Assembly (NCBI GenBank): GCA_050049035.1
Contig: JASFWU010000001.1
Coordinates: 1-37,768 of the forward strand
Origin: Akkermansiaceae bacterium
Lineage (GTDB): Bacteria; Verrucomicrobiota; Verrucomicrobiia; Verrucomicrobiales; Akkermansiaceae
DNA: 37,768 nt
Direction: 5' to 3'
In this document: positions 20,196 to 36,696 of the stretch, piece by piece
How positions within the stretch are numbered: the stretch's first letter is position 1
Layout of the letters: every line of letters begins with the position of its first letter
Notes under the pieces: generated by a model
Seen by the model: the letters and a program-made list of their open reading frames with translations, nothing else
What the model was told of the DNA's origin: nothing
Database searches by the model: none
Translations under genes and position numbers: made by a program

Positions 20196-20213
20196 TTTTT
20201 CTGACCACCGAAG

Positions 20214-23200
20214 ATGAGCAAACGCGTCTGGAACCCACCTGTCGCTCCTCAGAAGGGAGATTTGACCACCTCTTGGCGGAGTGTCGGTGAAAAAGAAGGG
20301 ACCGCTTCCTTCCGGAATCTCCTGGAGAAGGAGTTCCCTGCGGGCGACACCCTGACCGAAGAAGAACAAAAGGTCTCCCGCCGGAATTTCTCCAAACTGA
20401 TGGGGGCTTCATCGGCTCTTGCCGGTTTGGGCCTTGCTTCCTGCCGTCGTCCGGAAACCTACATTGTTCCATACAAGAAGGCTCCGGAGTGGATCGTTCC
20501 CGGAACTCCTCTTTTTTACTCAAGCACCCGCCCAAAGGCCGGCGGTGCGGTTCCCCTCGTGGTCACCACCTACGAAGGTCGCCCGACCAAGGTTGAACCC
20601 AATCCCGAGCACCCTGACTCTTCGGGCACCTGCGCTCAAACCCAGGCTTCGGTTCTCGACCTCTACTCTCCTTCGCGTTCCCGCAAGCTTCTCAAGAATG
20701 GTAAGCCGGCCCGCCAGGGTGAGCTTCAGGCTGTTCTTCAAGGACTTGATCTTTCCAAAACGGCCCTCGTTTTCGGGGAAGACGACTCTCCCACCCGGAA
20801 CCGCCTCGCCAAAGGGCTGGCGGCCAAAGGAGCCAAGCTCTACTCCTACGAAGCCGTCGCTGGCGAGCCCCTGACACCGGGCACGGCTCAAGTGGTCGAC
20901 TTCTCCAAGGCCAGCCGCATCCTTTCGCTGGACTGCGATTTCCTCGCCACCGATCCGATCGGCAACAGCAAGGCCTTCTCGAAGAAGCGCCAGGGCGGAA
21001 ACGCCAATTACGATCAGAAAGGTGACGTCGCTGCTGACAAGATGAACCGCCTTTACCAGGTGGAGACCCAGTTCAGCCTGACCGGCGGAATGGCCGATCA
21101 CCGTCTCCGCGTCACCCCAAGCCGGGTTCTCATGATTGCGGGCGAAATCGCCAAAGCACTGGGGCACGGATCCTACAAAGCGGAAGAAGGGGACAAAAAG
21201 GCTCTCTTTCCGGGCGCCGAAGATGCGGTTGATAAGTTTAATCAATGGATCAAAGCCTGCAAAGAGGATCTCGAGGAAGCCGCAAAAAAAGGTGAAGCCC
21301 TTATTCTCGCTGGTTCCCGCCAGTCGGCCGAGGTCAAGCAGATCGCCGCTTTCCTTAACGAGAAGCTTGGTTCCAAAGCGGTCAAAACCGTCAAGACCGA
21401 TCTCGGTCAGTATGGTTCGCTGACAGACCTCACTGCCAAGCTTGATGCCGGTGAAGTCGAGAACGTTCTTCTCCTCACGCCGTCGAATCCCGTCTTCGAT
21501 GCCGATGGCTTCGCTGATTCTCTCAAGAAAGCCAAGCTGAGCATCCACTGGGGTCTTCGCACTGACGCCACCGCTCACGCCTGCACCTGGCATGTTCCGG
21601 CGGCCCACTACCTTGAAAGCTGGGGCGACGCCCGCACCGAATCCGGCGTTCTTTCGCTGATTCAGCCCATGATTCTTCCGCTTTACGGCGGAATCTCCGA
21701 GATCGACCTCCTCCACGTCCTTGGTGGAGGAAAGTTCGGCGAGGGAGAGCTCCTTCCTTCCATGGGGGAGGTCAAAACCACCTTTGCTGAAGTCACAGGC
21801 AAGTCGGATCCCGAATCCTGGCGTAAGGCACTTGAGGAAGGGTTTGCTCCGGGCACTTCCTACACCGCCGCCACGTCCGAGACCACTCTTCCGGAGGTCA
21901 AACTGCCTTCACTTCCGAATGCCAAATCGCTCGAAGTGGTTTTCTCAACCGATGCTTCTGTTCTCGATGGACGTTTCATCGACAACGCCTGGCTTCAAGA
22001 GGCTCCCGATCCCGTCACCAAGCTGACCTGGGACAACGCGGCCCAGGTTTCTCCGGTAACCGCGAAGGAACTGGGGATTTACGACCGGGTCGTCAAACTC
22101 GAGACCTCGACTGCGGACGAAGCCCACACCGGCGTCGACGGAGGTCCGGGTGAGGGTGAAAACGCCCGCGCACCGTTCATCACCGTGAAAATCGGAGGTC
22201 GCGAACTGGAGATTCCCGTTCTCATTGCCTTCGGACAAGCCGACAATTCCATCGTCATCCCGGTGGGTTACGGTCAGGCCGCCGACGATGATCGCGCTGG
22301 GGTCGCTGCTCTCGATCCGAAGCACCCAACCGTGGGTGATGTCGGACTCAATACCGGTTTCAACACCTACCTTCTTCGTTCATCAGAAACTCCCTACATG
22401 GCAACGGGTGCCGAGGTTGCGGTCTCGGACGAATACTACGAGATCGCCCTGACCCAGGAGCACAACTCGATGTATGGACGAGCCCTCGCCCGCGAGATTT
22501 CCACCCAGGAAACGAGCGGCAAGAGTTTCGAAGAACAGAAGGAGGGAGTGAAGAAGCAGGGGATGGATTCCCACGCTCCCAAGAACATTTCCCTCTACAA
22601 GGCCCAGGGCGGTGTCTGGTCCAAGACCGAGCTCGCCGAGAAAACCCACCTCGCTGACGAGATTCACCAGTGGGGGATGGCTATCGATCTCAACACCTGC
22701 ACCGGTTGCAACGCCTGCCTCGTCGCCTGCCAGGCGGAGAACAACATTCCCGTGGTCGGTAAATCCCAGGTGGCCATGGGTCGCGAGATGCACTGGATTC
22801 GCATGGATCGCTACTTCTCCTCCCAGGAATACAAGTACGAAGACGGACACAAGGCCAAGGGTGACGACGGAAACAAGGTGAAGAATCCCGAGTGGGTTAC
22901 GCAGAACCCCGAGTCCATTCCCCAGCCTGTCGCCTGTGTTCAGTGCGAGATGGCTCCTTGCGAGACCGTTTGCCCGGTCAACGCCACCGTTCACACCGAG
23001 GAAGGCCTCAACTCCATGGCCTATAACCGCTGTATTGGAACCCGTTACTGCGCCAACAACTGCCCTTACAAGGCTCGTCGTTTCAACTTCTTCGATTACA
23101 ACAAGCGCAACCCACTCATCAAAGGAAACCTCTACAAAGGACCTTTCGGCGAGAAGCAGGTCGGAACCGCTCCGCACCTTCAGCGCAACCCGAATGTCAC

Positions 23201-23666
23201 CGTCCGGATGCGCGGCGTCATGGAAAAGTGCACCTACTGCGTGCAGCGTCTCGAGTCCGCCAAGATCAAGCAGAAGCAACAACAGAAGGTCAACAAGTAT
23301 GCCGCCGGCAAGAAGTCGCACGAGCTGACCGTCGACCGCACCAAGGACCTCCGCGTCAAGACCGACAGCGTCAAGACCGCCTGTCAGGATGCCTGCCCGT
23401 GCGATGCCATTTCCTTCGGGAACCTCCTCGACGAAAAGTCGAAGGTGGTTCGCGCAAAGGGCAACGACCTCGATTCGGTCCGCGCCATCATGGAGCATGT
23501 CACCGGCAAGGAATACACCCCGGTCAAAGGCAGCGCCCGCAACTACGACCTTCTGCAATACATCGGAACCCGCCCGCGCACGAGCTACCTCGCCCGCGTC
23601 AAGAATCCGAACAAGGAGATGCCTGACTTTAAGTTCCTCGGTCAGGCCACCATCAACATTCACTAA
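20214..23666 (+). CDS. actB: Alternative Complex III subunit ActB (fused molybdopterin-like B1 and 4Fe-4S B2 domains)
   Basis: 1150 aa with the Tat-like signal SRRNFSKLMGASSALAGLGLASC and a large MopB-like domain. Ferredoxin clusters follow: CTGCNACLVAC, CVQCEMAPCETVCP, CIGTRYCANNCP, CTYC and CQDACPC. Confidence 0.9.
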   Translation: MSKRVWNPPVAPQKGDLTTSWRSVGEKEGTASFRNLLEKEFPAGDTLTEEEQKVSRRNFSKLMGASSALAGLGLASCRRPETYIVPYKKAPEWIVPGTPLFYSSTRPKAGGAVPLVVTTYEGRPTKVEPNPEHPDSSGTCAQTQASVLDLYSPSRSRKLLKNGKPARQGELQAVLQGLDLSKTALVFGEDDSPTRNRLAKGLAAKGAKLYSYEAVAGEPLTPGTAQVVDFSKASRILSLDCDFLATDPIGNSKAFSKKRQGGNANYDQKGDVAADKMNRLYQVETQFSLTGGMADHRLRVTPSRVLMIAGEIAKALGHGSYKAEEGDKKALFPGAEDAVDKFNQWIKACKEDLEEAAKKGEALILAGSRQSAEVKQIAAFLNEKLGSKAVKTVKTDLGQYGSLTDLTAKLDAGEVENVLLLTPSNPVFDADGFADSLKKAKLSIHWGLRTDATAHACTWHVPAAHYLESWGDARTESGVLSLIQPMILPLYGGISEIDLLHVLGGGKFGEGELLPSMGEVKTTFAEVTGKSDPESWRKALEEGFAPGTSYTAATSETTLPEVKLPSLPNAKSLEVVFSTDASVLDGRFIDNAWLQEAPDPVTKLTWDNAAQVSPVTAKELGIYDRVVKLETSTADEAHTGVDGGPGEGENARAPFITVKIGGRELEIPVLIAFGQADNSIVIPVGYGQAADDDRAGVAALDPKHPTVGDVGLNTGFNTYLLRSSETPYMATGAEVAVSDEYYEIALTQEHNSMYGRALAREISTQETSGKSFEEQKEGVKKQGMDSHAPKNISLYKAQGGVWSKTELAEKTHLADEIHQWGMAIDLNTCTGCNACLVACQAENNIPVVGKSQVAMGREMHWIRMDRYFSSQEYKYEDGHKAKGDDGNKVKNPEWVTQNPESIPQPVACVQCEMAPCETVCPVNATVHTEEGLNSMAYNRCIGTRYCANNCPYKARRFNFFDYNKRNPLIKGNLYKGPFGEKQVGTAPHLQRNPNVTVRMRGVMEKCTYCVQRLESAKIKQKQQQKVNKYAAGKKSHELTVDRTKDLRVKTDSVKTACQDACPCDAISFGNLLDEKSKVVRAKGNDLDSVRAIMEHVTGKEYTPVKGSARNYDLLQYIGTRPRTSYLARVKNPNKEMPDFKFLGQATINIH

Positions 23667-23696
23667 CCTTCCAATCCTTTCCCGCGACTGAAACCC

Positions 23697-25226
23697 ATGG
23701 CCGAAGCGACCACATCGTCCGAGACTTCCGAAAGCACGGTGAAGATTCCCGTTCTTGAGCGCGAGAAGTTGATTCTCAACGAGCGTTCCTATAGCTGGAT
23801 CACCGATCGTATTTGCGGAGTGGTGGAAGGCCGCCAGCCCTTCCTCTGGTGGATCCTCTTCATTCCCTCAGCCATCATCGCCCTCGTCGGGGTGGTGGGC
23901 GGCCTGACCTACCTCGTTTCGACCGGGGTGGGGGTTTGGGGAAATACCAACCGCGTGATGTGGGGATGGCCGATTGTGAACTTCGTGTTCTGGATTGGTA
24001 TCGGTCACGCCGGAACGCTCATTTCCGCGATTCTTTTCCTGACTCGTCAAAACTGGCGGACCTCGATTAACCGTGCCGCGGAGGCCATGACGATTTTCGC
24101 GGTGATGTGCGCGGGGATTTTCCCGGCCTTCCACGTCGGTCGCGTTTGGATGGCCTGGTTCCTTGCTCCTATTCCCAACTCAAATGCGATCTGGCAGAAC
24201 TTCAAGTCGCCACTCCTTTGGGACGTTTTCGCGGTTTCGACTTACTTCACCGTTTCCTTGATCTTCTGGTTCCTCGGCATGGTGCCAGATCTCGCTACCA
24301 TCCGTGATCGCTGCAAGCCCGGCATCCGGAAGTTCATGTATGGCATTTTCTCCCTCGGGTGGCGCGGCGGCAACCGCCAGTGGAGCCACTACGAAATGGC
24401 ATACCTCCTTCTCGCTGCTCTTTCGACTCCGCTCGTGCTTTCGGTGCACTCGGTGGTCTCCTTTGACTTCGCAACTTCGGTGGTGCCCGGTTGGCACACC
24501 ACCATCTTTCCTCCCTACTTCGTGGCGGGTGCGATCTTTGGCGGATTTGCGATGGTGCTGACGATCATGATTCCCGCGCGGGCCATATACGGTCTGCACG
24601 ACATGATCACGATGAAGCACATCGACAACATGGCGAAGATCATTCTCCTGACGGGAACGATCGTGGGATACGCCTACTTGATGGAGCTCTTCATCGCCTT
24701 CTACTCCGGTGCCAAATACGAGGGCGCCGCCTTCACTTACCGCGCGACCGGCCCCTACTGGTGGGCTTACGCCGCGATGATGGGTCTCAACGTGATTTCA
24801 CCCCAGATCTTCTGGTTCAAGAGCATGCGCGAAAACCTCTGGGTCGTCATGGCCGTCGCGATGTGCGTGAACATCGGGATGTGGTTTGAGCGATTCGTGA
24901 TCATTGTCACCACGCTCGCCCGGATGTGGTTGCCTGGTGACTGGAAAACCTACAGTCCGAGTGCCGTCGATATCCTGACCTTTGTGGGAACGATCGGCAT
25001 GTTCCTCGCGCTCTTCCTTCTCTTCCTCCGCTTCCTGCCGTGCATCAACATCGCCGAGGTCAAATGGACCCTCAAGGAGAGCGATGCCCACGCCGAGGAC
25101 AAGGAGGCCCATCCTGATGAGGGCGTCGAGTTGATCGAGGCCTACCAATACGAAATTCACGAGAATCCCGAAGGATCCGCCAAAGAGGCCGGGATTGAAA
25201 CCGAAGCAAAACCTGTCGAGGCATGA
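23697..25226 (+). CDS. actC: Alternative Complex III subunit ActC (NrfD/PsrC-like quinol-interacting membrane subunit)
   Basis: 509 aa, polytopic NrfD-like protein in the canonical position after actB. Its stop overlaps the actD start (ATGA). Confidence 0.88.
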
Positions 25227-25780
25227 GCAAGAAAGTTCGTCGAGTATACGGCTACCTGGCCGAGTTCAAAAACGCCTCGCAGCTTTACAAGGCTGCCGAG
25301 AAGGTGCGCGATGCCGGCTTCAAGAAGTGGGATTGCTACACGCCATACCCGGTCCACGGTCTTGATGACGCGATGGGCGTGAAGCGTTCCATCCTGCCTT
25401 ACTTCGTTTTCGTGGGAGGCCTCACCGGATTCATCACCGCGATTGTTCTCGCTTACACCACGCAGGTGGGACTTTACCCGACCGTGGTGCAAGGCAAGCC
25501 GGCCAACATTTTCACCACCGCGGCCTTCTTCCCGGTGATGTTCGAGCTCACCATTCTCTTTTCCGGTTTCACCGTTCTTTTCGGGCTCCTTGGCCTGATG
25601 GGACTGCCCCGCTGGAACCACCCTCTCTTTACCAGCAAGAAGTTCGCCCGCGTGACCGACGACAAGTTCTTCATCGCGATCGAAGCGCGTGACGCCAAGT
25701 TTTCCGCCGAAGGAACGAAGGAGCTCTTGAGCGAAATCGGCGGCGACAACATCGAACTCGTGGAGGACGACTCCGAATAG
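25223..25780 (+). CDS. actD: Alternative Complex III subunit ActD (DUF3341)
   Basis: 185 aa. It has an N-terminal soluble segment [40 protein letters not shown] and two TM helices, typical of ActD. Confidence 0.85.
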
Positions 25781-25783
25781 ACC

Positions 25784-26410
25784 ATGAAATACTTTTTCCT
25801 CAGCCTGATTGCTCTTTCGGTCCTGACCGTCGGGGTCTTTGGTTTCCGTGGCGATAAGTTCTCGCTGCCACCGCTTTGGATTTTTCCCGACATGGATGAG
25901 CAGGACAAGGTGAAAGCCCAAACTGCCAACAGCTTCTTCGAAGATGGCATGGGGGCCCGCAAGCCGGTTCTCGGAACCGTTCCCCGCGGAGCGCAGGCCG
26001 GAGTGATGCCGATTGAGTTCGGGGCCGGTCGTTCGGGATACTATTACGACGGCAAGACCGAAGGGACCTTCGGAAACGGACTGCCCGAAGAGCTTGCGAT
26101 CAAAACCGAGGCTGACATGACCGGCTTGCTTGGTCGCGGAAAGGAAGTTTACAACGTCCACTGTGCCATTTGCCATGGCAAGTCCGGCAACGGTAAGGGA
26201 GTGGTTTCCGCTTACCTCGCCAAGAGCGACCCGGTCATCGCGGTTCCGACTCTTCTCGACAAAACCAAGGACAAGTATCCCGACGGCTACATCTACGAAG
26301 TCATTACCAACGGAAAGGGCAATATGGGAGCCTACGGTCACAACGTTCTCGTGCGTGACCGGTGGGCCATCGTCTCCTACCTCCGCGCTCTGCAGGCCTC
26401 GGCGAAATAG
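25784..26410 (+). CDS. actE: Alternative Complex III subunit ActE, monoheme cytochrome c
   Basis: 208 aa with a signal/anchor helix and a single CAICH heme motif. GKGNMGAYG provides a candidate Met ligand. Confidence 0.85.
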   Translation: MKYFFLSLIALSVLTVGVFGFRGDKFSLPPLWIFPDMDEQDKVKAQTANSFFEDGMGARKPVLGTVPRGAQAGVMPIEFGAGRSGYYYDGKTEGTFGNGLPEELAIKTEADMTGLLGRGKEVYNVHCAICHGKSGNGKGVVSAYLAKSDPVIAVPTLLDKTKDKYPDGYIYEVITNGKGNMGAYGHNVLVRDRWAIVSYLRALQASAK

Positions 26411-26437
26411 CAATTTTTCATTCGATCTACCAAGAAC

Positions 26438-27805
26438 ATGGCACACCAAGTGACATCAAAAGACATCCCGACCAACGGGGAGCATCTGGAGAAGGGCAGA
26501 ATTGCCAAACTCCAGATGATCACTGCAGTGATTGGCGGCGGTGGCGTGCTGGCCAGCATCATTTACCTCCTTGCCGGCGGAGGAGTGGAAACGGGCGAGC
26601 ATGAATCAAACTGGGTTCACGGATCCTACGCCTTCTCTTGGCTCTTTGCGGTCTTCTTTGTCACCACCATCGCTCTTGGCGGTTGCTTTTGGACCTTCCT
26701 CCACAACCTCTCCAACTCGGGGTGGGGGACCTCGGTGCGCCGCATGATGGAAAACCTCGGCTTCGTTTTTCCTTTCCTCTTCGTCCTTTTCATTCCCTTC
26801 CTCTTCCCACAGGTCCAGCAGTATCTCTACGAGTGGATGACTGCTTACAGCGAAGGAGTAGAGCGGGCTGCAAAGCTCGATGTCCCTCATGCCACTGCCA
26901 AGGACGGTTTGATGCACAGCCCTGATGCTCACGATCACCTTCTTGCGGCCAAGACCTTCTACTTGAATCCCGGGTTCTGGCTAGCCCGCTTCTTCTTCTA
27001 CTTCGTCGGACTTGGCTTCTTTATCTTTCTCGTCCGGAAGTTCTCGATTGCCCAGGACACCGACAAGAATCCCGGCATCAAGAATCTCTTCGCGGCCCGT
27101 AAGCATTCTTCATGGAGCATGATCATCTTCGCGGTGACTTTGACTTTCCTCGCCCTCGATTTCGTGATGGCTCTCGATTACTCATGGTTCTCCACCATGT
27201 TTGGAGTTTACGTCTTCGCTGGTTCGGCCTTGAACTCGATGGCGGTCCTCATCCTTACCGGGATCATCCTGCAAAAGATGGGTTTTCTGAAGAACGTGGT
27301 GACCAAGGAGCACTACCACATCATGGGTAAGTTCTGCTTCGCCTTCACCATCTTCTGGGCCTACGTCTCCTTCTCCCAATTCTTCCTGATCTGGTATGCC
27401 AACATCACCGAGGAAACCCGCTACTTCCTTCTCCGGAACACCGAGAACTGGAACCTCGTCAGCCTTGCACTCGTCTTCATGCACTTCGGTCTGCCGTTCC
27501 TGGCCCTCCTTCGTTCGGACGTGAAGAAGAGCACGAAGTTCATGACGATCTTCTGCTTCTACATCCTCTTCATGCATGTGATCGACGTCTATCACATGAT
27601 CATCCCGGAACGCGGACCTTCGGTGGGTCTCGTTGTCCAGCATCATCCTGTCCTGTGGATTGGTGGATCCTGGGTCGGTGACATCCTCGCCTTGGCCATC
27701 ACGATCTCGGCCTTCCTCTTCCTTTACCTTCGGAACCTTACTTCGGCTGCGCTCTATCCTCACCGCGATCCCCGCATCCTCGAGTCGGCCAATCTTCACA
27801 ACTAA
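26438..27805 (+). CDS. actF: Alternative Complex III subunit ActF (second NrfD-like membrane subunit)
   Basis: 455 aa, polytopic, in the canonical position after actE. Confidence 0.85.
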   Translation: MAHQVTSKDIPTNGEHLEKGRIAKLQMITAVIGGGGVLASIIYLLAGGGVETGEHESNWVHGSYAFSWLFAVFFVTTIALGGCFWTFLHNLSNSGWGTSVRRMMENLGFVFPFLFVLFIPFLFPQVQQYLYEWMTAYSEGVERAAKLDVPHATAKDGLMHSPDAHDHLLAAKTFYLNPGFWLARFFFYFVGLGFFIFLVRKFSIAQDTDKNPGIKNLFAARKHSSWSMIIFAVTLTFLALDFVMALDYSWFSTMFGVYVFAGSALNSMAVLILTGIILQKMGFLKNVVTKEHYHIMGKFCFAFTIFWAYVSFSQFFLIWYANITEETRYFLLRNTENWNLVSLALVFMHFGLPFLALLRSDVKKSTKFMTIFCFYILFMHVIDVYHMIIPERGPSVGLVVQHHPVLWIGGSWVGDILALAITISAFLFLYLRNLTSAALYPHRDPRILESANLHN

Positions 27806-28209: not shown

Positions 28210-29697
28210 ATGTCAGAGACCACTTCCACCGCAGATCCCAAAGCTGTTGCTTTGCGTGCTTCGATCGATCGCTCTCTTCGCCACCCGGTGATGTTCTTCT
28301 TCACGAGCGGGTCGCTCTGGCTTTTCGGGGCGATCGTCCTTGGTCTCATCGCCTCGGCGAAGCAGCACTCACCCGGCTTCCTGAGTTCCTTCTCCTGGTT
28401 CGATGCCGGGAAGGTCGACGCCGCACACATGACCGCCCTGATCTACGGATGGGGCATGCAGGCGGCCTTCGGAATCATCATCTGGCTCATGGCCCGTCTC
28501 TCCCGCAAGGAGTGCACCAACGTGGGAACCATTCTTTGGGCCGGTCACATCTGGAATGCCGCAATCTCCTACGGCGTGATCAAGATCTTGATGGGGTTTG
28601 GTTCCGGCATCCAATACATGGAGCTTCCCGGTGAAGTCTGGCCGGTTCTTCTTTTCTGCTACGGACTCATCACCATCTGGTCGCTGATTCAGTTTCAGGT
28701 TCGCGACGCCGGGCACGTTTATGTGAGCCAGTGGTATCTCCTCGCGGCCCTTCTCTGGTTCCCGTGGATCACCTTGACCAGCTGGGCGCTCGTCTTTGTC
28801 TTCGACGGACACCCCCTCATGGCCACCGGGATCACCTCGTGGTTCAAAGGGACGCTCTTCACTCTCTTCTTCCTCCCTGTCGCCCTCGCGAGCGCCTACT
28901 ACCTCGCACCCAAGGTCACCGGGCGTCCGGTTTACAGCTACAACATCGCGCTCTTTGGGTTTTGGGCTCTCGCTTTCTTCGGTCCCTGGGCTGGAATGCA
29001 GAAGCTGACCGGGGCTCCCATTCCCCAGTTCCTTCCCTACGCCGGAGCGGCTTCGATGATTCTCATTCTCATCCCGGCCATCGCGGTTGGCTACAACATC
29101 ATCCGCACCATTCTCAGCAATGGCAGCCTGGTGGCGCAAAGCCCTTCCCTCCGCTTCTCGATCGCCGGAGTGGTGCTCTTCCTGCTCTTCGGGGTGCTCT
29201 CCCTTTTCCTTCACCTTCCTCCTTCGCTTCGTCTGACCCAGTTCAGCTTCAGCGGATATGGACTCGATATCCTGGGAATCTACGGCGTCTTTTCATTCTG
29301 CGCCTTCGGAGCCATTTACTTCGTGGTGCCCCGCATCACCCGACGCGAGTGGCTCTCCCGCCGCCTCATCAAGTGGCACTTCTTCTTCTCAATCTACGCC
29401 CTCGGAACCGTCGTCTTCTGCGCGGTCATGGGTGGGATCTCCCAAGGCAACGGAATTGAAGATCTCTCCCAGCCCTTCGGCACCATGGCTTCCCGGAGCC
29501 AGCAGTTCGCCTGGGGTGTCACCATCGCGTGGGCCTTCGTTCTCCTCGCCAACTTCCTCTTCTGTCTCCACCTCCTCCTGATGTGGGCCCGCCTTGGACG
29601 TCGTTCCTCGCACCCGACTCTTCTCAAGGAAGATCATGCCGGCAGCCCGCATGGTCCGGAAGGAGAGATCGACAACTACGGATCCGCTTCAGCCTAA
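28210..29697 (+). CDS. cbb3-type oxidase subunit I (CcoN)-like membrane protein lacking the CuB and most heme ligands
   Basis: 495 aa, about 12 TM helices. Clear CcoN-like blocks are present: QYMELPGEVWPV, VYVSQWYLLAALLWFP, YYLAPKVTGRPVYSYNIALFGFWAL and PWAG. At the ligand positions, GHNAVG reads KGTLFT, PHHLHY reads MQKLTG, and GHVHSG reads SGYGLD. Only the helix-2 His (AAHMTAL) is kept. Confidence 0.75.
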   Translation: MSETTSTADPKAVALRASIDRSLRHPVMFFFTSGSLWLFGAIVLGLIASAKQHSPGFLSSFSWFDAGKVDAAHMTALIYGWGMQAAFGIIIWLMARLSRKECTNVGTILWAGHIWNAAISYGVIKILMGFGSGIQYMELPGEVWPVLLFCYGLITIWSLIQFQVRDAGHVYVSQWYLLAALLWFPWITLTSWALVFVFDGHPLMATGITSWFKGTLFTLFFLPVALASAYYLAPKVTGRPVYSYNIALFGFWALAFFGPWAGMQKLTGAPIPQFLPYAGAASMILILIPAIAVGYNIIRTILSNGSLVAQSPSLRFSIAGVVLFLLFGVLSLFLHLPPSLRLTQFSFSGYGLDILGIYGVFSFCAFGAIYFVVPRITRREWLSRRLIKWHFFFSIYALGTVVFCAVMGGISQGNGIEDLSQPFGTMASRSQQFAWGVTIAWAFVLLANFLFCLHLLLMWARLGRRSSHPTLLKEDHAGSPHGPEGEIDNYGSASA

Positions 29698-29719
29698 AGT
29701 TTTCACGCCACTACACCCC

Positions 29720-30448
29720 ATGACTTTTAAAGCCTTCTTGATTGGTCTTATCGGCACCTTCGGTCTCCCGTGGTTGTTTGCGGTGATCATTCCTTTTGCG
29801 ACGATGCAGGGGCTCGACCCGGTCGAGTTTGAAGAAGACGGCCCCTCGACGGGCGTCTACAGCCCCAAGCGGGAAGGCCGGATCACCGAGGGTTCCATCA
29901 TCTACGGACAGGAAGGCTGCTACCAGTGTCACACCCAGGTCATTCGTCCGACCTATGCGGGTTACGATGTGCACCGCGATGAGTGGGCTGGCATCGGAAG
30001 CCCCAAGAAGAGCACTCGCCGTGAGACTCTTCCCTGGGATTTCGCACAGGAAAAAACCGCTCACATTGGCATCAGCCGCGTAGGGCCGGATCTTTCCAAC
30101 TTTGGCCGCCGTGTGACCCATCATCTCAAGGGCGGCGACACCACGCCCGAAGAGTGGGTTCTCATGCATCTTTATAATCCACAGGAGGTCTTCCGCTACG
30201 ACAGCCCGAAGGAAGTAGCGATCAACTCCACCTGCCCGTCCAAAGGCGGTCTCTTTGATGTCGTCGATGTCTACGGAGCCGGGAGCCGGACTCTCCCGGT
30301 GGCCATCGAAGAAGGAAAAGGGGTCATGCCCACCGACCGCGCCCGTGCTCTCGCCAGCTACCTTCTCTCCCTGAAAAAGGACACCTTTGGCAACCCCGTT
30401 CCGGAATCACTTAACTTCAACCCTCGAACTGCCAGTTCCGAAGAATAA
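29720..30448 (+). CDS. cbb3-type oxidase subunit II (CcoO/FixO)-like monoheme cytochrome c
   Basis: 242 aa from MTFKAFLIGL, which forms a TM anchor. The CcoO-like blocks are GQEGCYQCHTQVIRP, RVGPDLSNFGRR and WVLMHLYNPQEV. The ORF track's upstream start at 29594 overlaps the previous gene. Confidence 0.75.
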   Translation: MTFKAFLIGLIGTFGLPWLFAVIIPFATMQGLDPVEFEEDGPSTGVYSPKREGRITEGSIIYGQEGCYQCHTQVIRPTYAGYDVHRDEWAGIGSPKKSTRRETLPWDFAQEKTAHIGISRVGPDLSNFGRRVTHHLKGGDTTPEEWVLMHLYNPQEVFRYDSPKEVAINSTCPSKGGLFDVVDVYGAGSRTLPVAIEEGKGVMPTDRARALASYLLSLKKDTFGNPVPESLNFNPRTASSEE

Positions 30449-30449
30449 C

Positions 30450-31220
30450 ATGTCTGATTCATCGCAAAACAGCGACGCCCGTCCCGATCTCGAGGAATCG
30501 ATCAACGTCCCCGAGGCGCATGGAGCTTTGGCTAATAGCCAGGCCGCCGCAAGCCGTGAGAATACCGTTCGCGAAAACGGCATGGAGGCTGTTTCGCTTT
30601 GGCTGGTCTTGATCTCGGCGATCGTTGTCCTCGCTGCCGGTGCCACCATGGGCAAGGGAGGAGGATTTTTCAGCTACAGTGAGACGGTGATTGCTGGTTA
30701 TGTCCAGGAAGAGTCTCCAATCGAGATCCCTACTGAAGCTCAGCCGGAAGGCATCAAGAAGCTTCTTATGGCAGAAGGCAAAAAGGTCTATGCCAACTGT
30801 GCTTCCTGTCACCAAGCGAACGGACTTGGCCAAGCCGGGGTCTTCCCACCTCTGGCTGGCTCCGAATGGGTCACTGGAAACACCGAGGCCCTAGCAATGA
30901 TCATCAAAAATGGAGTTGCCGGGAAAATCGACGTCAAAGAAGTCACCTACAATGGCAACATGGCTGCCATCGGAGCCAACTTGAGTGCCAAGGAACTCGC
31001 CGCTCTCATGACCTACATTCGGAACGACTGGGGCAACGATGCGAGCATTGTGACACCCGAGATGGCAGCCGCCGCCATAAAAATTTCCGACGAACGTGCT
31101 GGCGGTCAGGTCTCTGCGGAGGAGCTGAAAAAATCGCATGACAAGATGCTCGAGGGTGACATTTTGGACCCAGAAACTCTTGTTGATCCGGACACTTTCG
31201 AGCCCGTAGCAGCTGAGTAA
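30450..31220 (+). CDS. Membrane-anchored class I monoheme cytochrome c
   Basis: 256 aa from MSDSSQ, starting 1 nt after the previous stop. It has one TM helix (VSLWLVLISAIVVLAAGA), a CASCH heme motif, a downstream YNGNMAA Met ligand candidate and MTYIRNDWGN. Confidence 0.8.
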   Translation: MSDSSQNSDARPDLEESINVPEAHGALANSQAAASRENTVRENGMEAVSLWLVLISAIVVLAAGATMGKGGGFFSYSETVIAGYVQEESPIEIPTEAQPEGIKKLLMAEGKKVYANCASCHQANGLGQAGVFPPLAGSEWVTGNTEALAMIIKNGVAGKIDVKEVTYNGNMAAIGANLSAKELAALMTYIRNDWGNDASIVTPEMAAAAIKISDERAGGQVSAEELKKSHDKMLEGDILDPETLVDPDTFEPVAAE

Positions 31221-31249: not shown

Positions 31250-33157
31250 ATGAGTGCGGACACCCACAGCGCCCAAGACACCCACGATCACCACGACGAC
31301 CACCACCACGTTCTTCCCTGGTGGCAAAAGTATCTTTTCTCGACGGATCACAAGACCATCGGGATTCAGTACGGTCTCGCGGCAGGTGCCTTCCTCCTTT
31401 TTGGTTTCCTTTTGATGATCGTGATGCGCTGGAGCATCGCCTACCCGCATGAGCCTCTTCCCGGCTACCTCAGCTGGATGTTCACCGACGGCTGGAAAGC
31501 ACGTTGGTTGGTCGATGGCAAGGTCACCGGCGAGACCTACAACATGTTCGGTGCGATGCATGGAACGATCATGGTTTTCCTGGGAGTCGTGCCTCTCGGT
31601 TTTGCTGCGTTCGGTAACTACGTCACGCCACTTCAAATTGGTGCGCCCGACATGGCTTTCCCCAAGCTGAACATGGCCAGCTTCTGGATCTACCTCCTCG
31701 GTGGGCTCGTGATGTGCATGTCCTTCTTCATGGAATCTGGTGCCGCCAAATCCGGATGGACCAACTACTCGCCATTGGCGGGATACGCCGACAGTCAGAT
31801 TGTGAACCAGTTCCTCGCGGGACAAACGCAATGGCTCATCGGTCTGGTCCTATTGATCACCTCGTCGCTCCTCGGCTCGGTGAACTTCATCACCACCATC
31901 ATCCAGCTTCGCGCCAAGGGCCTCACCTGGATGCGCCTTCCCTTCTTTGTCTGGGCCATGCTAGTCACCGGTTTCCTCCTTCTCCTGGCCTTCCCGCCAC
32001 TTGAAGCCGCCGGCATCATGCAGCTCATGGACCGTGTCACCGGTTCTTCCTTCTTCATGCCTTCCGGCCTCTTCTCCTCGGCAGACGGCGTTGCGATGGA
32101 CCTTTCCGGATCCGGCAGCCCGCTTCTTTTCCAGCACCTCTTCTGGTTCCTGGGACACCCTGAGGTTTATGTCCTTCTTCTTCCGGCCATCGCTTGCGTC
32201 GCGGAGATCATTCCCTGCAACACCCGCAAGCCGCTTTGGGGATACAAGTCGATGGTCTACGCGGTCATCGCTCTCGGATTCCTCTCCTTCATCGTTTGGG
32301 CCCACCACATGTATCTCACTGGAATGGGACCAGTCATTTCGACCTTCTTCCAAACCACCACAGTGTTGATTTCGGTGCCGTCGGTGATTCTTCTCACCTC
32401 ACTGATCATCTCGCTTTGGGGTGGCTCCATTCGCTTCACCATGCCGATGATCTGGGCCGCGGCCTTCCTTCCGATGTTTGGAATCGGAGGTCTCACCGGT
32501 CTGCCTTTGGCCTTCAACTTGGCGGATCTCCACCTTCACGACACCTACTACGTGATCGGTCACTTTCACTACGTGGTGGCTCCGGGCATCCTCTTCGGTC
32601 TCTTTGCCGGGGTTTATCACTGGTATCCCAAGATGACCGGTCGATACATGGACAACTTCCTCGGCCATCTTCATTTCTGGCCGTCCCTCATTTGCATGAA
32701 CTTCCTGTTCTTCCCCATGCTCACCCAGGGGATGGCTGGCTTCCACCGTCGTTGGTATAACGGGGGTGAAGGCTACATCGAGAAGGCCGCTGAAGGCGTG
32801 AACGTCTTCGGAATCACCGTTGCGGAGAAGATCTCCCTCAACGAGGTCATGACCGCTTCCGCCATTGCTCTCGCCATTTTCCAGGTTCCCTTCCTGATTA
32901 ACATGGCAGTCAGTTACTGGCGCGGCAAGAAAGTCACCAGCGACAACCCATGGGATGCCACCACTCTCGAGTGGGCCACCCCGACGCCTCCGGGACACGG
33001 AAACTTCACTTTCGAGCCTTCGATTTACCGGGGTCCTTACGAATACAGCCGTCCTGATCACGACACCGACTTCTTCCCGCAGTGGGAAGAGCCCAAGCGG
33101 GACAAGCCGGCTGAGAAACCTGCCGAGGCTCCCGAAAAGGAGACCACCAAGGCCTAG
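31250..33157 (+). CDS. ctaD: Cytochrome c oxidase (A-type heme-copper oxidase) subunit I
   Basis: 635 aa. All ligand motifs are present: FSTDHKTIGIQY, GAMHGTIMVF, LFWFLGHPEVYVLLLP (including the HPEVY Glu/Tyr of A1-type enzymes), WAHHMY and HDTYYVIGHFHYV. The N-terminus is His-rich (THDHHDDHHH). Confidence 0.95.
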   Translation: MSADTHSAQDTHDHHDDHHHVLPWWQKYLFSTDHKTIGIQYGLAAGAFLLFGFLLMIVMRWSIAYPHEPLPGYLSWMFTDGWKARWLVDGKVTGETYNMFGAMHGTIMVFLGVVPLGFAAFGNYVTPLQIGAPDMAFPKLNMASFWIYLLGGLVMCMSFFMESGAAKSGWTNYSPLAGYADSQIVNQFLAGQTQWLIGLVLLITSSLLGSVNFITTIIQLRAKGLTWMRLPFFVWAMLVTGFLLLLAFPPLEAAGIMQLMDRVTGSSFFMPSGLFSSADGVAMDLSGSGSPLLFQHLFWFLGHPEVYVLLLPAIACVAEIIPCNTRKPLWGYKSMVYAVIALGFLSFIVWAHHMYLTGMGPVISTFFQTTTVLISVPSVILLTSLIISLWGGSIRFTMPMIWAAAFLPMFGIGGLTGLPLAFNLADLHLHDTYYVIGHFHYVVAPGILFGLFAGVYHWYPKMTGRYMDNFLGHLHFWPSLICMNFLFFPMLTQGMAGFHRRWYNGGEGYIEKAAEGVNVFGITVAEKISLNEVMTASAIALAIFQVPFLINMAVSYWRGKKVTSDNPWDATTLEWATPTPPGHGNFTFEPSIYRGPYEYSRPDHDTDFFPQWEEPKRDKPAEKPAEAPEKETTKA

Positions 33158-33191
33158 ACTGAATCACTTCATTCCAATCCCTCACTGATCC

Positions 33192-34979
33192 ATGGAAATT
33201 CCATTTGTCGTTAATGCCCGGAAAGACACCGGTCTCTTCAACTCCAAGGTAGGCATCTGGCTCTTCCTGGCTTCCGAGGTGACCTTGTTCGGTGGTCTTT
33301 TCTCCGGGTATCTTTTCCTCCGACTCTACGCGGACTACCCTTGGCCCGAGCGCGCGCTTCCCGTCCTGCCCGGTCTCATCAACACCTTCGTCCTCATTGG
33401 ATCGTCGGTCACGGTGGTTTTCGCTTGGGCGGCGCTCAAGATGCGTGAGTGGAAAAAGTTTCAGCTCTACATGTCGATCACCTTGGCATGCGCGGCCATA
33501 TTCATGGTTCTGAAAGGAGTCGAGTATTCCGCCAAGTTTGGTCACCAAGGTGTTCAGATTGCTGGTGACGGACCGGTCCAGGGACGCGAAATCGTCGAGG
33601 GCCACGTCCACTATGCAAAGGTGGGCGAAGACGGGTTGATTGAGGAGGTCAAGAAAGAGAATAAGGACGACGAAGGAGTCTTCCTTGCCAATAAGGTTCT
33701 CTTCAAGGTCAGCGAATTGTCCTTCGTGCTTAAGCGCCCGACTCATGAGGCCTACGTCGATTCCATTTTGGAACAAGCGGCGGCTGCCGAATCAAAGATC
33801 ACCCTCACCGAAGCATACCGCGTCATTGATCCCGACCAGTTGATGGAGGGCAAGATGAGCCGTGAACAGCTACTCAAGGGCGACGAGGCCGTCGTGGTGG
33901 ACGCAGGTGAGGAGCTTTCCATCGATGCTCTCGACAAGATGGAGGATGCCTTTCTTGATGCGCGAAGCTACGATCAGAAGTTGTCGACCAAGTTTCTTGC
34001 TGCGTCCTGGGATTGGGTCCGTGAACAACCCGGATATTCCGAGAAAGAAATGCAGGGAACCTACGTGGTCACCGAGGAAATCTGGACCGACCGCCGTAAA
34101 GAAGATGCCGACAAGCTCAAGCAGCTGACTTTGCAGGCTCCGCTTTCAGTGTCCTTCAAAGTGGACCCGCCGTTCACTCTTGTTCTCGGGCCCAACGATC
34201 TTGTCAAGTATGACAAGGAAAGTGGCCAGCTTCGCGATGACACCACCATGGCCGGTGAGCTACTCCCAAGTCCGATCATCATGGGAGTCGATGCGCTTGA
34301 CTTCCGGACCACCGCGCAGCGTGCCGAGGCCGAGGGTCTTGATCCACTTCCAGTGATCGAGGGCACCTGGCTTCTCACCCACAAGCCTGTCCACCATCAC
34401 GGTGACGCCGGTGAAAAGGGCGAAGGCGGAGATGATCGAAACACCTTCAAGAAGATCTGGGATTGCCACATGGCCTGGCTCAAGACCGAGGAAAAGCGTC
34501 TTGCCGAGAAGGACCGGGAGCCCACCGACAATGATCGCTATCGGGTAAATTGGGACCAGATCATCGCCTACAAGGAACTCGATTATGACGCTGCGAAGGT
34601 TGAAGAATACTGCGCTGACCGTGATGACGACAAAGAGCTCTACAGCTCGGGTCTCTTCGATCTCAAGGGCTTTGCGGGTGCCAATCACAGCAAGTTCGAT
34701 TTCCCTCATCTCGAAATTCCCCGCGAGAGGGTGAACTTTGAGTCCACCTTCACTCCGAAGTGGAACACCTATTACGCCATCTACTTCACCATCACCGGTC
34801 TTCACGGTCTTCACGTGATCGGGGGCGCGATTGTTCTTGGTTACTACCTCTTCTTCGGACGGAAGATGTATGAATCCAATCCCGAGTGGCTGGCGAACAG
34901 GGTCGAGATTGGTGGCCTCTTCTGGCACTTTGTTGACCTCGTCTGGATCTTCCTCTTCCCGATCCTCTACTTGATGTAA
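33192..34979 (+). CDS. ctaE: Cytochrome c oxidase subunit III carrying a ~400-aa hydrophilic insertion
   Basis: 595 aa. The N-terminal ~115 aa (VGIWLFLASEVTLFGGLF...VLKGVEYSAKFGH) and the C-terminal ~75 aa (YYAIYFTITGLHGLHVIGG...GLFWHFVDLVWIFLFPILY) are canonical subunit III helices. A long acidic non-membrane segment separates them. Confidence 0.85.
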   Translation: MEIPFVVNARKDTGLFNSKVGIWLFLASEVTLFGGLFSGYLFLRLYADYPWPERALPVLPGLINTFVLIGSSVTVVFAWAALKMREWKKFQLYMSITLACAAIFMVLKGVEYSAKFGHQGVQIAGDGPVQGREIVEGHVHYAKVGEDGLIEEVKKENKDDEGVFLANKVLFKVSELSFVLKRPTHEAYVDSILEQAAAAESKITLTEAYRVIDPDQLMEGKMSREQLLKGDEAVVVDAGEELSIDALDKMEDAFLDARSYDQKLSTKFLAASWDWVREQPGYSEKEMQGTYVVTEEIWTDRRKEDADKLKQLTLQAPLSVSFKVDPPFTLVLGPNDLVKYDKESGQLRDDTTMAGELLPSPIIMGVDALDFRTTAQRAEAEGLDPLPVIEGTWLLTHKPVHHHGDAGEKGEGGDDRNTFKKIWDCHMAWLKTEEKRLAEKDREPTDNDRYRVNWDQIIAYKELDYDAAKVEEYCADRDDDKELYSSGLFDLKGFAGANHSKFDFPHLEIPRERVNFESTFTPKWNTYYAIYFTITGLHGLHVIGGAIVLGYYLFFGRKMYESNPEWLANRVEIGGLFWHFVDLVWIFLFPILYLM

Positions 34980-35016
34980 TCTCGATTTTCCCAACCGAAT
35001 CCAACCTCATTCACTT

Positions 35017-35412
35017 ATGGCTGATTCCATTGCAGAAGTTCAGAAAGCGAAAAAGCTCTACATGTTCATCGGGCTTCTTCTCTTCTTTTTCACCGTTGTC
35101 ACCGTCATGGTGGCCACTGTTGAGGACCTCGACTTTGGCGAGCACGGCTTCGACAAGGCTGATGCCATCATTGGTCTGCTCATCGCGGCCTTCAAAGCTT
35201 CCCTGGTGATGATCATCTTCATGCACCTCAACCATGAGAGGCCGTTGATCTACTTCGTCTACATCCTCGGAATCGTGATGGCCATTTTCTGTATGTGGCT
35301 GATTGGTTGGTCCAAGAGCGATATCACCAGCTTCGGTGATCCCAACGCGAAAGACGGTTTCTACGACCCTGCAAAACCTGCGACTGATCCCCACGGTGGA
35401 TCGGACGACTAA
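35017..35412 (+). CDS. ctaF: Prokaryotic cytochrome oxidase subunit IV family protein (COX4_pro/CyoD-like)
   Basis: 131 aa, three TM helices, with the family-typical FKASLVMIIFMHLNHE motif. It is positioned after ctaE. Confidence 0.75.
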   Translation: MADSIAEVQKAKKLYMFIGLLLFFFTVVTVMVATVEDLDFGEHGFDKADAIIGLLIAAFKASLVMIIFMHLNHERPLIYFVYILGIVMAIFCMWLIGWSKSDITSFGDPNAKDGFYDPAKPATDPHGGSDD

Positions 35413-35425
35413 CCGCATTCAAACC

Positions 35426-35629
35426 ATGTCGATCAAAGGCTTCCATCTCATCTTCATCTTTGTCGCGGCCCTTTTCAGTGCGGGTGTCGGGGTGTGGGCC
35501 TTGTTCCTGGATGACAAGTCCAGCGGGATCGGCACCAAGATCTTCGGCGGGGTCACTCTCGCTGCCGCAGTCGCTCTCGTGATCTACGGCATCTACTTTC
35601 GCCGCAAAGCCAAAGACATCATTGTCTGA
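35426..35629 (+). CDS. Small two-helix membrane protein in the oxidase operon
   Basis: 67 aa: MSIKGFHLIFIFVAALFSAGVGVWALFL...GGVTLAAAVALVIYGIYFRRKAK. It starts 13 nt after ctaF on the same strand. No family recognised. Confidence 0.45.
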   Translation: MSIKGFHLIFIFVAALFSAGVGVWALFLDDKSSGIGTKIFGGVTLAAAVALVIYGIYFRRKAKDIIV

Positions 35630-35655
35630 ATACCCAAATCCACCCCGAGACACCC

Positions 35656-35877
35656 ATGAACTCCATCCTCACTCCTTTGGCTTGCGCCACTTGCGCCCAG
35701 GCTTTCGAACACGGCGGAAAAGATGCCGCCGGATGGGCCATTGCCCTCATGCTTCTCGTCATCGTTCCTCTCGTGACGATGGTGGTTTGGTTCATGATCA
35801 AGATCGCAAAGCGCGAGAAGTCAGGCCTCGATCCTGAATTGTGCGACGACTACGTCGCTCCGCCCTCAAATTCCTAA
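35656..35877 (+). CDS. Small single-pass membrane protein with N-terminal CxxC
   Basis: 73 aa: MNSILTPLACATCAQAFEHGG, then a TM helix WAIALMLLVIVPLVTMVVWFMI. It ends 12 nt before coxB. No family recognised. Confidence 0.45.
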   Translation: MNSILTPLACATCAQAFEHGGKDAAGWAIALMLLVIVPLVTMVVWFMIKIAKREKSGLDPELCDDYVAPPSNS

Positions 35878-35889
35878 ATCTTTCCCGAT

Positions 35890-36696
35890 ATGTTTATTCC
35901 TCTCAACTGGTCAAAATGGCTCGGCATCCCGGAGAATTTCTCGGATCACGGAAGTAACGTTGATCACCTGATCGACATTGTTCACTGGTTCATGTTCGCC
36001 CTTTTCGTGGGCTGGACCCTCTTCTTCCTCTTCTGTCTCTGGAAGTTCCGCGCTTCCAAGAATCCGAAGGCCAGCTACCACGGAGTTCAAAACCACGTTT
36101 CCAGCCACCTGGAAATCGGTGTGGTCATTATCGAAGCCGTCCTTCTCCTCGGTTTTGCTTTCCCGCTTTGGTGGGAGCGCACCGATCAATTCCCCGAAGT
36201 GCAAAAGACCGACCCGACCCGCGTTCGCGTGATCGCTTATCAGTTTGGTTTCCAGTATCACTATCCTGGTAAGGACGGGAAGTTCGGGCGAATTGACCGG
36301 ACCCTCGTGAAAGGACCGGGCGATGCCTGCATCGACCCGGACGATCCCCAGGGATACGACGATTTCATCTCGGGCACGCTCAAGCTGCCCGTCGATCGCA
36401 ACGCCATCCTCCAGATCACTTCGACCGACGTCATTCACAACTACTCCATCGTCCCGATGCGCATCCAGCAGGACGCCATGCCCGGCAAGGACATCCCGAT
36501 GTGGTTCAAGCCGATCAAGGAGCTCGAGACCGGTGTGGTTTGTGGCCAGCTTTGCGGTGAGAACCATGCGGTCATGAAGGGCACCATGGAGGTGATTGCC
36601 CAGAAGAAGTATGACAGCTGGGCGATCGAGCAGAGCGACGCTGCCTTCAAGAAGTCACCGGGTGGCAAAGCCGCCAGTGAGGTGGCCAAGAGGTAG
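35890..36696 (+). CDS. coxB: Cytochrome c oxidase subunit II (CuA subunit, no fused cytochrome c domain)
   Basis: 268 aa with two N-terminal TM helices and a cupredoxin domain. CuA ligands are DVIHNYSI and CGQLCGENHAVM (C-x3-C-x3-H-x2-M). There is no CxxCH motif. Confidence 0.9.
   Translation: MFIPLNWSKWLGIPENFSDHGSNVDHLIDIVHWFMFALFVGWTLFFLFCLWKFRASKNPKASYHGVQNHVSSHLEIGVVIIEAVLLLGFAFPLWWERTDQFPEVQKTDPTRVRVIAYQFGFQYHYPGKDGKFGRIDRTLVKGPGDACIDPDDPQGYDDFISGTLKLPVDRNAILQITSTDVIHNYSIVPMRIQQDAMPGKDIPMWFKPIKELETGVVCGQLCGENHAVMKGTMEVIAQKKYDSWAIEQSDAAFKKSPGGKAASEVAKR

Follow-up and report, generated by a model that had tools for sequence, protein, structure and literature searches.

What becomes of a cytochrome oxidase subunit that has lost the ligands of its catalytic metals, and why would a genome keep it? 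This question is raised by a 37,768-nt stretch of DNA from an Akkermansiaceae bacterium (GenBank assembly GCA_050049035.1, contig JASFWU010000001.1, positions 1 to 37,768 of the forward strand), which we refer to as the window. Between the genes for alternative complex III (ACIII) and those for an aa3-type oxidase, it contains an open reading frame (ORF) at 28210-29697 that resembles CcoN, subunit I of cbb3-type oxidases. A first-pass annotation of the window had described the product as a ligand-less CcoN homolog, here called pCcoN (pseudo-CcoN), with a CcoO-like partner. This description is borne out by three alignments and by a structural model of high confidence. The locus represents a real, strongly conserved and apparently undescribed variant, in which a cofactor-stripped cbb3 module has become fixed behind ACIII, and from its context we infer what this module may do.

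Fold and former ligand positions of pCcoN

The CcoN signature blocks claimed for the ORF, namely QYMELPGEVWPV, VYVSQWY, YYLAPKVTGRPVYSY and FWAL..PWAG, are all present in its 495-amino-acid translation. Profile comparison, as proposed in the first-pass annotation, places pCcoN above the cutoff of the superfamily profile Pfam COX1 (PF00115; residues 27-414, E = 1.4e-33, 116.9 bits against a cutoff of 34.8) and far below that of the CcoN equivalog NCBIfam TIGR00780 (83.8 bits against a cutoff of 583.15). The best sequence matches in the PDB are the cbb3 CcoN chains 9g6b_A and 3mk7_A (E = 1e-19 to 1e-16). An AlphaFold2 (AF2) model of pCcoN alone, built from 81 family sequences, contains 12 long helices and is of high confidence, with a predicted local distance difference test (pLDDT) score of 91.8 and a predicted template modelling (pTM) score of 0.92. 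In Foldseek, it matches Pseudomonas stutzeri 3mk7_A with template modelling (TM) scores of 0.84/0.89 and a root-mean-square deviation of 2.1 A at ~20% identity. Fits to nitric oxide reductase (NOR) subunits (TM 0.75-0.78) and to A/B-family subunits (0.64-0.76) are weaker. Fold and profile identify pCcoN as a C-family heme-copper oxidase subunit I with 12 helices.

For P. stutzeri CcoN, we take the ligands to be H60 and H347 for heme b, H345 for heme b3, and H207, H257 and H258 for CuB, with Y251 as the cross-linked Tyr; the 3mk7_A sequence that we used has a His or Tyr at each of these positions. The ligand columns were compared in three alignments, which were a HMMER alignment to 3mk7_A, a MAFFT alignment with 118 homologs and P. 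stutzeri CcoN, and a BLASTP alignment to P0140, the closest relative that has all ligands (33% identity over the full length, gap-poor, 266 bits). As the first-pass annotation had proposed, the sole surviving ligand of six is the helix-2 His, H60, which corresponds to His73 (nt 28426-28428) in all three alignments. The CuB ligand H207 falls on Gly214 (nt 28849-28851) in the MAFFT and P0140 alignments and one residue later, on Thr215, in the HMMER alignment, neither of which is a His. Here, WFAH of P0140 is matched by WFKG of pCcoN, and the column at Gly214 holds Ser, Gly or Ala in the family. The other two CuB ligands, H257 and H258, correspond to Gln264 and Lys265 (nt 28999-29004; WAGMHH against WAGMQK) in all three alignments, and the same residues occur in 74/80 (Gln) and 77/80 (Lys) orthologs. 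A coordinate check showed that both CuB placements had been given exactly. Columns 264 and 265 were judged from pairwise and small alignments, because ~50 sequences have gaps there in FFT-NS-2 and L-INS-i alignments of 135 representatives. A salt bridge between Lys265 and Asp353 filling the old active site was considered and dropped, as Asp353 is less than 80% conserved.

In helix 10, the His-x-His of active oxidases is replaced by Leu352-Asp353-Ile354 (nt 29263-29271; GHAHLG against GLDILG). All three alignments place Leu352 (nt 29263-29265) at the heme b3 ligand H345 and Ile354 (nt 29269-29271) at the heme b ligand H347, and the orthologs have Phe, Leu, Tyr or Met in the first column and Ile or Val in the second. 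The first-pass annotation was right about the loss of both ligands, but it had assigned their sites to Gly349 and Gly351. This three-residue slip is inconsequential because there is no His in residues 336-389. Neither does the translation contain any between residues 202 and 334, and in 79-80 of 81 orthologs none of the former CuB and helix-10 ligand positions has a His within +/-3 residues. The cross-linked Tyr Y251 aligns to Gly258 (MAFFT and P0140 alignments), and the active-site Glu E323 to Leu330 (MAFFT alignment). Of the catalytic features of cbb3 CcoN, pCcoN therefore retains none intact, whether the two heme b His, the heme b3 His, the CuB His triad or the Tyr and Glu. With the loss of five of its six His ligands, of the cross-linked Tyr and of the active-site Glu, pCcoN cannot build a heme b3-CuB centre in the known way, and O2 reduction by the known chemistry is excluded.

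The remaining ligand, His73, is conserved as His in 79/80 Verrucomicrobiales orthologs, and most other ligand-less lineages have Ala, Phe, Gln or Ser in this column. In Verrucomicrobiales, conservation also reaches at least 97% for five further His residues of pCcoN (His25, His113, His454, His468 and His481). Judged by oxidase topology, they sit at or near the cytoplasmic face, and they include those of an N-terminal motif, IDRSLRHPVMFF, and of a C-terminal tail, RLGRRSxHPTLL..PHG..D. The canonical P0140 has no His at the positions of His113 and His454. The five residues may form a metal site or a partner site.

Conservation, partner cytochromes and origin

Relatives of pCcoN were found in 405 species-representative genomes. 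This survey used a pattern scan on one genome per species with a narrow alignment, so the 405 matches are biased toward the QK-type clade. All of the best 80 among the 405 genomes belong to Verrucomicrobiota, and most carry the names Akkermansiaceae, Verrucomicrobiales, Luteolibacter, Haloferula, Roseibacillus or Prosthecobacter. Cultured carriers are Luteolibacter algae KCTC 22040 (locus L059), Luteolibacter sp. AS25 and Verrucomicrobiaceae bacterium 227. These best 80 loci, each with +/-10 kb around the gene, and the window yielded 81 full-length genomic orthologs. Every sufficiently long fetched locus has the gene order ActABCDEF, pCcoN, CcoO-like, cytochrome c, CtaD, CtaE, Cox4, CoxB. The position of pCcoN between ACIII and a canonical aa3 oxidase, noted from the window, thus holds in these Verrucomicrobiota loci.

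All 81 pCcoN orthologs are full-length and collinear, with uninterrupted reading frames and no stops. Identity to pCcoN across the 80 fetched loci is 55-89%, comparable to that of ActF and ActB. The pairwise ratio of nonsynonymous to synonymous substitutions (dN/dS), a test that the first-pass annotation had suggested together with the survey of ACIII loci, is 0.03-0.06 at unsaturated dS of 0.1-0.6, and ActF, CtaE and CoxB fall in the same range in the same pairs. pCcoN is under strong purifying selection and is no pseudogene.

The gene behind pCcoN most likely starts at the ATG at 29720 and ends at 30448, with a CYQCH heme motif at nt 29918-29932. Its product scores 30.8 bits on Pfam FixO (cutoff 29.6) and matches CcoO chains in the PDB with E = 5e-5 to 5e-3. 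An hhalign comparison of its family with the canonical CcoO encoded next to P0140 (locus L082) gives a probability of 99.8% (E = 1.4e-29), with StCPS placed over gsiMPp, which bears out the proposed CcoO-like partner. The claim that its heme site is intact stands in part. CYQCH is kept, and CxxCH occurs in all 82 aligned CcoO-like sequences, but the axial Met is replaced by an invariant Cys. The Met of CcoO (Met136 in SKMPSY of P. stutzeri; GSIMPP in L082) has its counterpart in Cys172 (nt 30233-30235) of NSTCPS. This Cys is present in 77/77 orthologs from the fetched loci and L081, as well as in L085, and 52 database homologs (46-76% identity) show no variation at C67, C70, H71, S170, C172 and P173. 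Apart from Cys172, the only Cys residues of the protein are the two of CxxCH.

With Cys172 in the Met column, the His/Met ligation of a CcoO heme is missing, and the heme may instead be ligated by Cys172. Hemes of the c-type with His/Cys ligation have potentials several hundred mV below +198 mV and below typical c-type potentials (PMC9562282), and the known examples are either catalytic or of unusually low potential (PMC9562282, PMC4423706). The Met is kept at the axial position in loci L082-L084 and L086-L090, and ligand-less operons with no aa3 oxidase behind them have the Met. Cys-type CcoO-like proteins coincide with the sub-clade whose operon continues into aa3 genes. Because this is a single clade, the coincidence represents one evolutionary event rather than a replicated correlation.

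To place pCcoN in its wider family, 1.84 billion representative proteins were searched, which gave 260 clusters at E<=1e-30. From the ~135 full-length best cluster representatives (50% identity), a neighbour-joining tree rooted on P. stutzeri CcoN was built. The full H-H-Y-H-H-H-H pattern occurs in only four of the ~135, and these are basal, while the 131 ligand-poor representatives form a derived group. One Opitutales member (P0133) retains 4/6 His. Source names are mostly Verrucomicrobiota (Verrucomicrobiales, Opitutales, Terrimicrobiaceae), with a few isolated metagenome-assembled genomes labelled otherwise. When column entropy was computed for 132 ligand-poor representatives, five of the former ligand columns could be scored; their percentiles range over 28-93, with four exceeding the median. 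The 40 positions with the strongest conservation hold mainly Gly, Pro, Trp and Phe. Column entropy in these 132 sequences revealed no family-wide conserved metal-binding set or replacement active site.

The locus of P0140 (L082, GCA_018398935.1) encodes ActA-F, a small protein, FixS, a CcoN with all ligands, FixO, a monoheme cytochrome c and a P-type ATPase, and is a genuine ACIII-cbb3 operon. It shares with the window ActA-F, a small transmembrane protein, CcoN, CcoO and a monoheme cytochrome c, as well as an N-terminal IDxSxRxPV motif. It differs in having all six His, the Tyr and the CcoO Met, with FixS before and a CcoI-like ATPase after the module, and in having no aa3 genes. The cytochrome c gene of the window at 30450-31220 encodes a protein with 39% identity (E = 1e-33) to that of the third, CcoP-like gene of L082 (12190-12972), and by this similarity belongs to the former cbb3 module as its third gene. 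Among 82 orthologs, conservation of its CxxCH (CASCH, residues 117-121) and Met171 is 95% or higher. Judged from their sequences, the three genes at 28210-31220 are orthologs, or a remnant, of an ACIII-linked cbb3 oxidase consisting of CcoN, CcoO and a monoheme CcoP-like protein. With P. stutzeri cbb3 (PDB 3MK7), they share the 12-helix subunit I fold, the order N, O, c-type cytochrome, and a CcoO partner with a transmembrane anchor and CxxCH. Unlike it, the module of the window lacks five of six His, the Tyr and the Glu, has Cys for the CcoO Met and a monoheme third subunit, and has no CcoS or CcoI within +/-10 kb.

FixS (CcoS) and CcoI serve cofactor insertion into CcoN. No homologs of FixS/CcoS or CcoI were found within +/-10 kb in the window and 86 other loci, L082 being the only locus that has them. 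Because both genes serve cofactor insertion, their absence nearby fits the loss of the metal centres. The order ACIII, small gene, pCcoN, CcoO, cytochrome c is found in each of the 90 examined loci of sufficient reach, at identities as low as 30%, and is kept by the distant ligand-poor members (30-44% identity). Beyond the cytochrome c, the operon continues to aa3 in L085 and stops in L087-L090. The pCcoN module is tied to ACIII and not to aa3.

Several further features were seen in this wider family. Helix 10 of many relatives with a Met-type CcoO has Gln-x-Gln where His-x-His stood (AQTQL, GQMQL and AQVQL in L083, L084 and L088). Gln is among the commonest residues at both helix-10 columns, and His to Gln is a single-base change; the recurrent Gln may reflect a packing or hydrogen-bond requirement. 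A ligand-poor protein of 706 amino acids (P0232) combines PF00115 and PF02433 in one polypeptide, a pseudo-CcoN/CcoO fusion comparable to the bifunctional subunit I/II fusions already known. In two soil-type ligand-less operons, L088 (11431-12417) and L090 (11494-12393), the CcoO-like protein has an insertion of ~90 amino acids right behind the heme motif, and the L088 operon is followed by a same-strand Oxidored_molyb (sulfite-oxidase-like) gene.

Layout of the locus

The neighbours of the module are those given in the first-pass annotation, as Pfam matches identify ACIII upstream and an aa3 oxidase downstream (Table 1). The full set actABCDEF is present according to Pfam, heme-motif counts and synteny.

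Table 1. Features of the window from ACIII to the aa3-type oxidase (positions in nt).
Feature	Position	Strand	Properties
ACIII gene set actABCDEF	19434-27805	+	Pfam Cytochrome_C7, Fer4, NrfD, ActD, Cytochrome_CBB3
actA	19434-20195	+	Five CxxCH (pentaheme)
actB	20214-23666	+	FeS ActB of ACIII
actC	23697-25226	+	NrfD-like
actD	25223-25780	+	ActD of ACIII
actE	25784-26410	+	One CxxCH (monoheme)
actF	26438-27805	+	NrfD-like; no Pfam match; synteny conserved
Small protein, 124 amino acids	27811-28185	+	N-terminal transmembrane helix, Pro/Ala/Glu/Lys-rich tail
pCcoN, 495 amino acids, 12 transmembrane helices	28210-29697	+	ATG start; PF00115
CcoO-like monoheme cytochrome c, 242 amino acids	29720-30448	+	N-terminal transmembrane helix; CYQCH
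Transmembrane-anchored monoheme cytochrome c, 256 amino acids	30450-31220	+	Pfam Cytochrom_C, Cytochrome_CBB3
aa3-type oxidase genes	31250-36696	+	Pfam COX1, COX3, COX4_pro, COX2
ctaD, 635 amino acids	31250-33157	+	Pfam COX1 (PF00115) 431.8 bits
ctaE, 595 amino acids, large insertion	33192-34979	+	Pfam COX3
COX4	35017-35412	+	Pfam COX4_pro
coxB	35890-36696	+	Pfam COX2; CuA ligands present, without heme c domain

The small protein encoded between actF and pCcoN has no Pfam or NCBIfam match, and syntenic tblastn matches to it were found in 52/80 loci (29-74% identity). In 9/9 further loci that reach upstream, including the canonical L082, the slot between actF and CcoN likewise holds a small gene (98-158 amino acids). 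Similarity between the protein of the window and its 153-amino-acid counterpart in L082 is confined to low-complexity sequence. The proteins of this interval are built alike among loci, with one transmembrane helix and a Pro/Ala/Lys/Glu-rich tail, and are hardly conserved in sequence. An identity as CcoS/FixS was ruled out, as no homology was found. The small protein is a candidate lineage-specific ACIII subunit.

The downstream oxidase has a subunit I with His ligands and a subunit II with a CuA site. All canonical ligand motifs are present in the CtaD translation (GHPEVY, AHHMY, GHFHYV), which scores 546 bits on TIGR02891, below the cutoff of ~670. CoxB contains DVIHN...CGQLCGENHAVM and the CuA pattern H...CxxxCxxxHxxM, and no CxxCH. 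CtaD is longer than a typical subunit I; its N-terminus is rich in His (DTHDHHDDHHH) and its C-terminal tail in Lys, Glu and Pro. In CtaE, a hydrophilic, acidic and Lys-rich insertion of ~390 amino acids splits the COX3 helices into an N-terminal (~19-122) and a C-terminal (517-595) group; ctaE is syntenic in all loci, at an identity of only 40-75%. The 480-bp gap between COX4 and coxB (35412-35890) contains two small ORFs with predicted transmembrane helices, one of which (MSIKGFHLIFIFVAALF...) ends at 35629 and the other spans 35656-35877. L085 carries a gene for 66 amino acids at the same position. These small ORFs may encode extra oxidase subunits.

Possible roles and wider meaning

The best-supported reading, to which we would give an even chance, is that the dead cbb3 module has been retained to serve the c-type cytochrome output of ACIII as a membrane scaffold or adaptor. 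pCcoN would be a cofactor-poor scaffold that holds two single-helix c-type cytochromes at the electron exit of ACIII. In the aa3-containing clade, the His/Met monoheme cytochrome c behind the CcoO-like gene would be a tethered carrier on a route from ActE through this cytochrome to CuA. It is a likely carrier because CoxB, which has no CxxCH, lacks a cytochrome c domain, and ActA, with only five hemes, lacks an extra one. The heme of the CcoO-like protein would have lost its electron acceptor, heme b, and His/Cys ligation would probably lower its potential; it might be redox-silenced or used as a switch, and not as a relay.

To our knowledge, the ACIII-oxidase gene clusters of Flavobacterium johnsoniae and Rhodothermus marinus encode no CcoN- or CcoO-like proteins. 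As in the window, A-family oxidase genes follow ACIII in these organisms, where a c-heme domain bridges ActE/ActA to CuA (PMC5928083). In R. marinus, ActE feeds subunit II's cytochrome c domain, and in F. johnsoniae that domain is replaced by an additional one in ActA (PMC5928083). Whereas this bridge is a domain of subunit II or ActA, the window has three extra genes in between.

By analogy, pCcoN would work most like a structural pseudoenzyme subunit, comparable to ActB or to the NorC-like domain of qNOR. The N-terminal domain of ActB has no molybdopterin, and subunit II of cytochrome bo3 has no CuA. The NorC-like domain of qNOR is heme-less, and gNOR has Asp for one CuB His (PMC11214002). 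All these proteins resemble pCcoN in that a cofactor or catalytic site was lost and the fold retained inside a respiratory complex. They differ in that one cofactor or ligand was lost, whereas pCcoN is a core catalytic subunit that has lost essentially its entire ligand set.

Several observations weigh against a scaffold. The invariant His73 and the clade-specific His residues hint at a residual or new cofactor or partner site, which a pure scaffold leaves unexplained. A Foldseek search of the PDB with the AF2 model of the CcoO-like protein (pLDDT 82) gave no significant match, CcoO included, and the homology to CcoO therefore rests on sequence and profile evidence. Likewise, ligation by Cys172 is read from alignments, and the association of the module with ACIII or aa3 from operon linkage. 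Many ligand-poor modules (L087-L090) have no adjoining aa3 genes, and therefore the aa3-bridging part of the model can hold only for the clade of the window. In addition, ActE might donate to CuA directly, in which case the extra cytochrome would be unnecessary.

A bolder form of the scaffold model seems possible to us, if doubtful. Here, the former oxidase would be a permanent ACIII subunit across Verrucomicrobiota, with the cofactor-stripped CcoN as a membrane dock linking ACIII to the cytochromes at its electron exit (and to aa3 in Verrucomicrobiales) and the His/Cys heme of the former CcoO as a redox-gated switch. If true, the heme-copper oxidase superfamily would have in pCcoN its first member that lacks cofactors and has a defined non-catalytic role.

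Rather less probable, at somewhat over one chance in five, is that the module has remained a redox enzyme or sensor with non-canonical chemistry, either with the His/Cys heme c as an active or sensing centre or with a heme in pCcoN bound by His73 and a new ligand. It could perform thiol or sulfur chemistry, as SoxA and TsdA do, or sense gas or redox state and gate the output of ACIII, with pCcoN as anchor or transducer. In favour of this idea are the invariance of Cys172 at the axial position, together with S170 and P173, and the catalytic or low-potential nature of known His/Cys c-type hemes (PMC9562282, PMC4423706). It is also consistent with His73 in 79/80 orthologs and with the five highly conserved His residues, of which at least His113 and His454 are absent from P0140. 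It leaves the family as a whole unexplained, however, since other ligand-less lineages keep the CcoO Met and lose His73, and it is at odds with the lack of a family-wide metal-binding set and with a conserved operon that has no sulfur-metabolism or signalling genes. The His/Cys c-type proteins SoxA, TsdA and DsrJ share with the CcoO-like protein a Cys at the distal axial position, here suggested by alignment. We found no sequence or fold relation to them (the best Foldseek match, SoxAX 1h32_B, has a non-significant E of 0.14), and the window has no sulfur-oxidation gene context.

It is unlikely that pCcoN retains a non-redox transport function, such as a proton or ion pathway or a lipid or quinone site supporting energy coupling by ACIII. 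A complete 12-helix transmembrane fold of very high model confidence, strong purifying selection over the whole length, and the conserved cytoplasmic N-terminal motif and C-terminal tail would suit such a function. Against it, small or hydrophobic residues stand in place of E323 and the cross-linked Tyr, the family-conserved positions are mostly Gly, Pro and aromatic residues without a polar chain, and the driving reaction is gone from pCcoN. A decaying pseudogene or neutral remnant awaiting deletion, which the lost catalytic residues and low TIGR00780 score might suggest, is refuted by the intact orthologs, their dN/dS, an identity over 80 loci comparable with ActF and ActB, and more than 130 divergent representative clusters. 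Least probable of all is an ordinary cbb3 oxidase whose ligands were missed in a shifted alignment, as the database name 'cbb3-type cytochrome c oxidase subunit I' would have it: the first-pass annotation had itself raised such a shift, and it is refuted by the agreement of three alignment methods, including the gap-poor one to P0140, and by the lack of any nearby His in nearly all orthologs.

Six His ligands are the defining feature of the heme-copper oxidase superfamily. According to a 2024 survey, the active-site His are completely conserved in all families except gNOR (PMC11214002). The family described here is a large, selected clade that breaks this rule, as 131 of ~135 representative clusters are ligand-poor, and our literature searches turned up no description of a ligand-less or degenerate CcoN. 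The same gene arrangement was noticed in freshwater Verrucomicrobia by He et al., who read it as a high-affinity cbb3 oxidase (PMC5615132, Text S1), and NCBI and JGI annotate these genes as 'cbb3-type cytochrome c oxidase subunit I/II'. Because pseudo-oxidase genes are annotated and read as cbb3 in this way, microaerobic respiration inferred from ccoN/ccoO counts in Verrucomicrobia-rich samples may be inflated, and surveys that count pCcoN as a high-affinity oxidase are probably wrong. Cultured carriers make the role of the pCcoN module directly testable. The family spans grades of decay, from canonical, through 4/6 His in Opitutales and ligand-less with a Met-type CcoO, to ligand-less with a Cys-type CcoO and aa3. 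These grades provide a natural series from a respiratory enzyme to a pseudoenzyme subunit, and for the hand-over of electrons from ACIII to oxidases.

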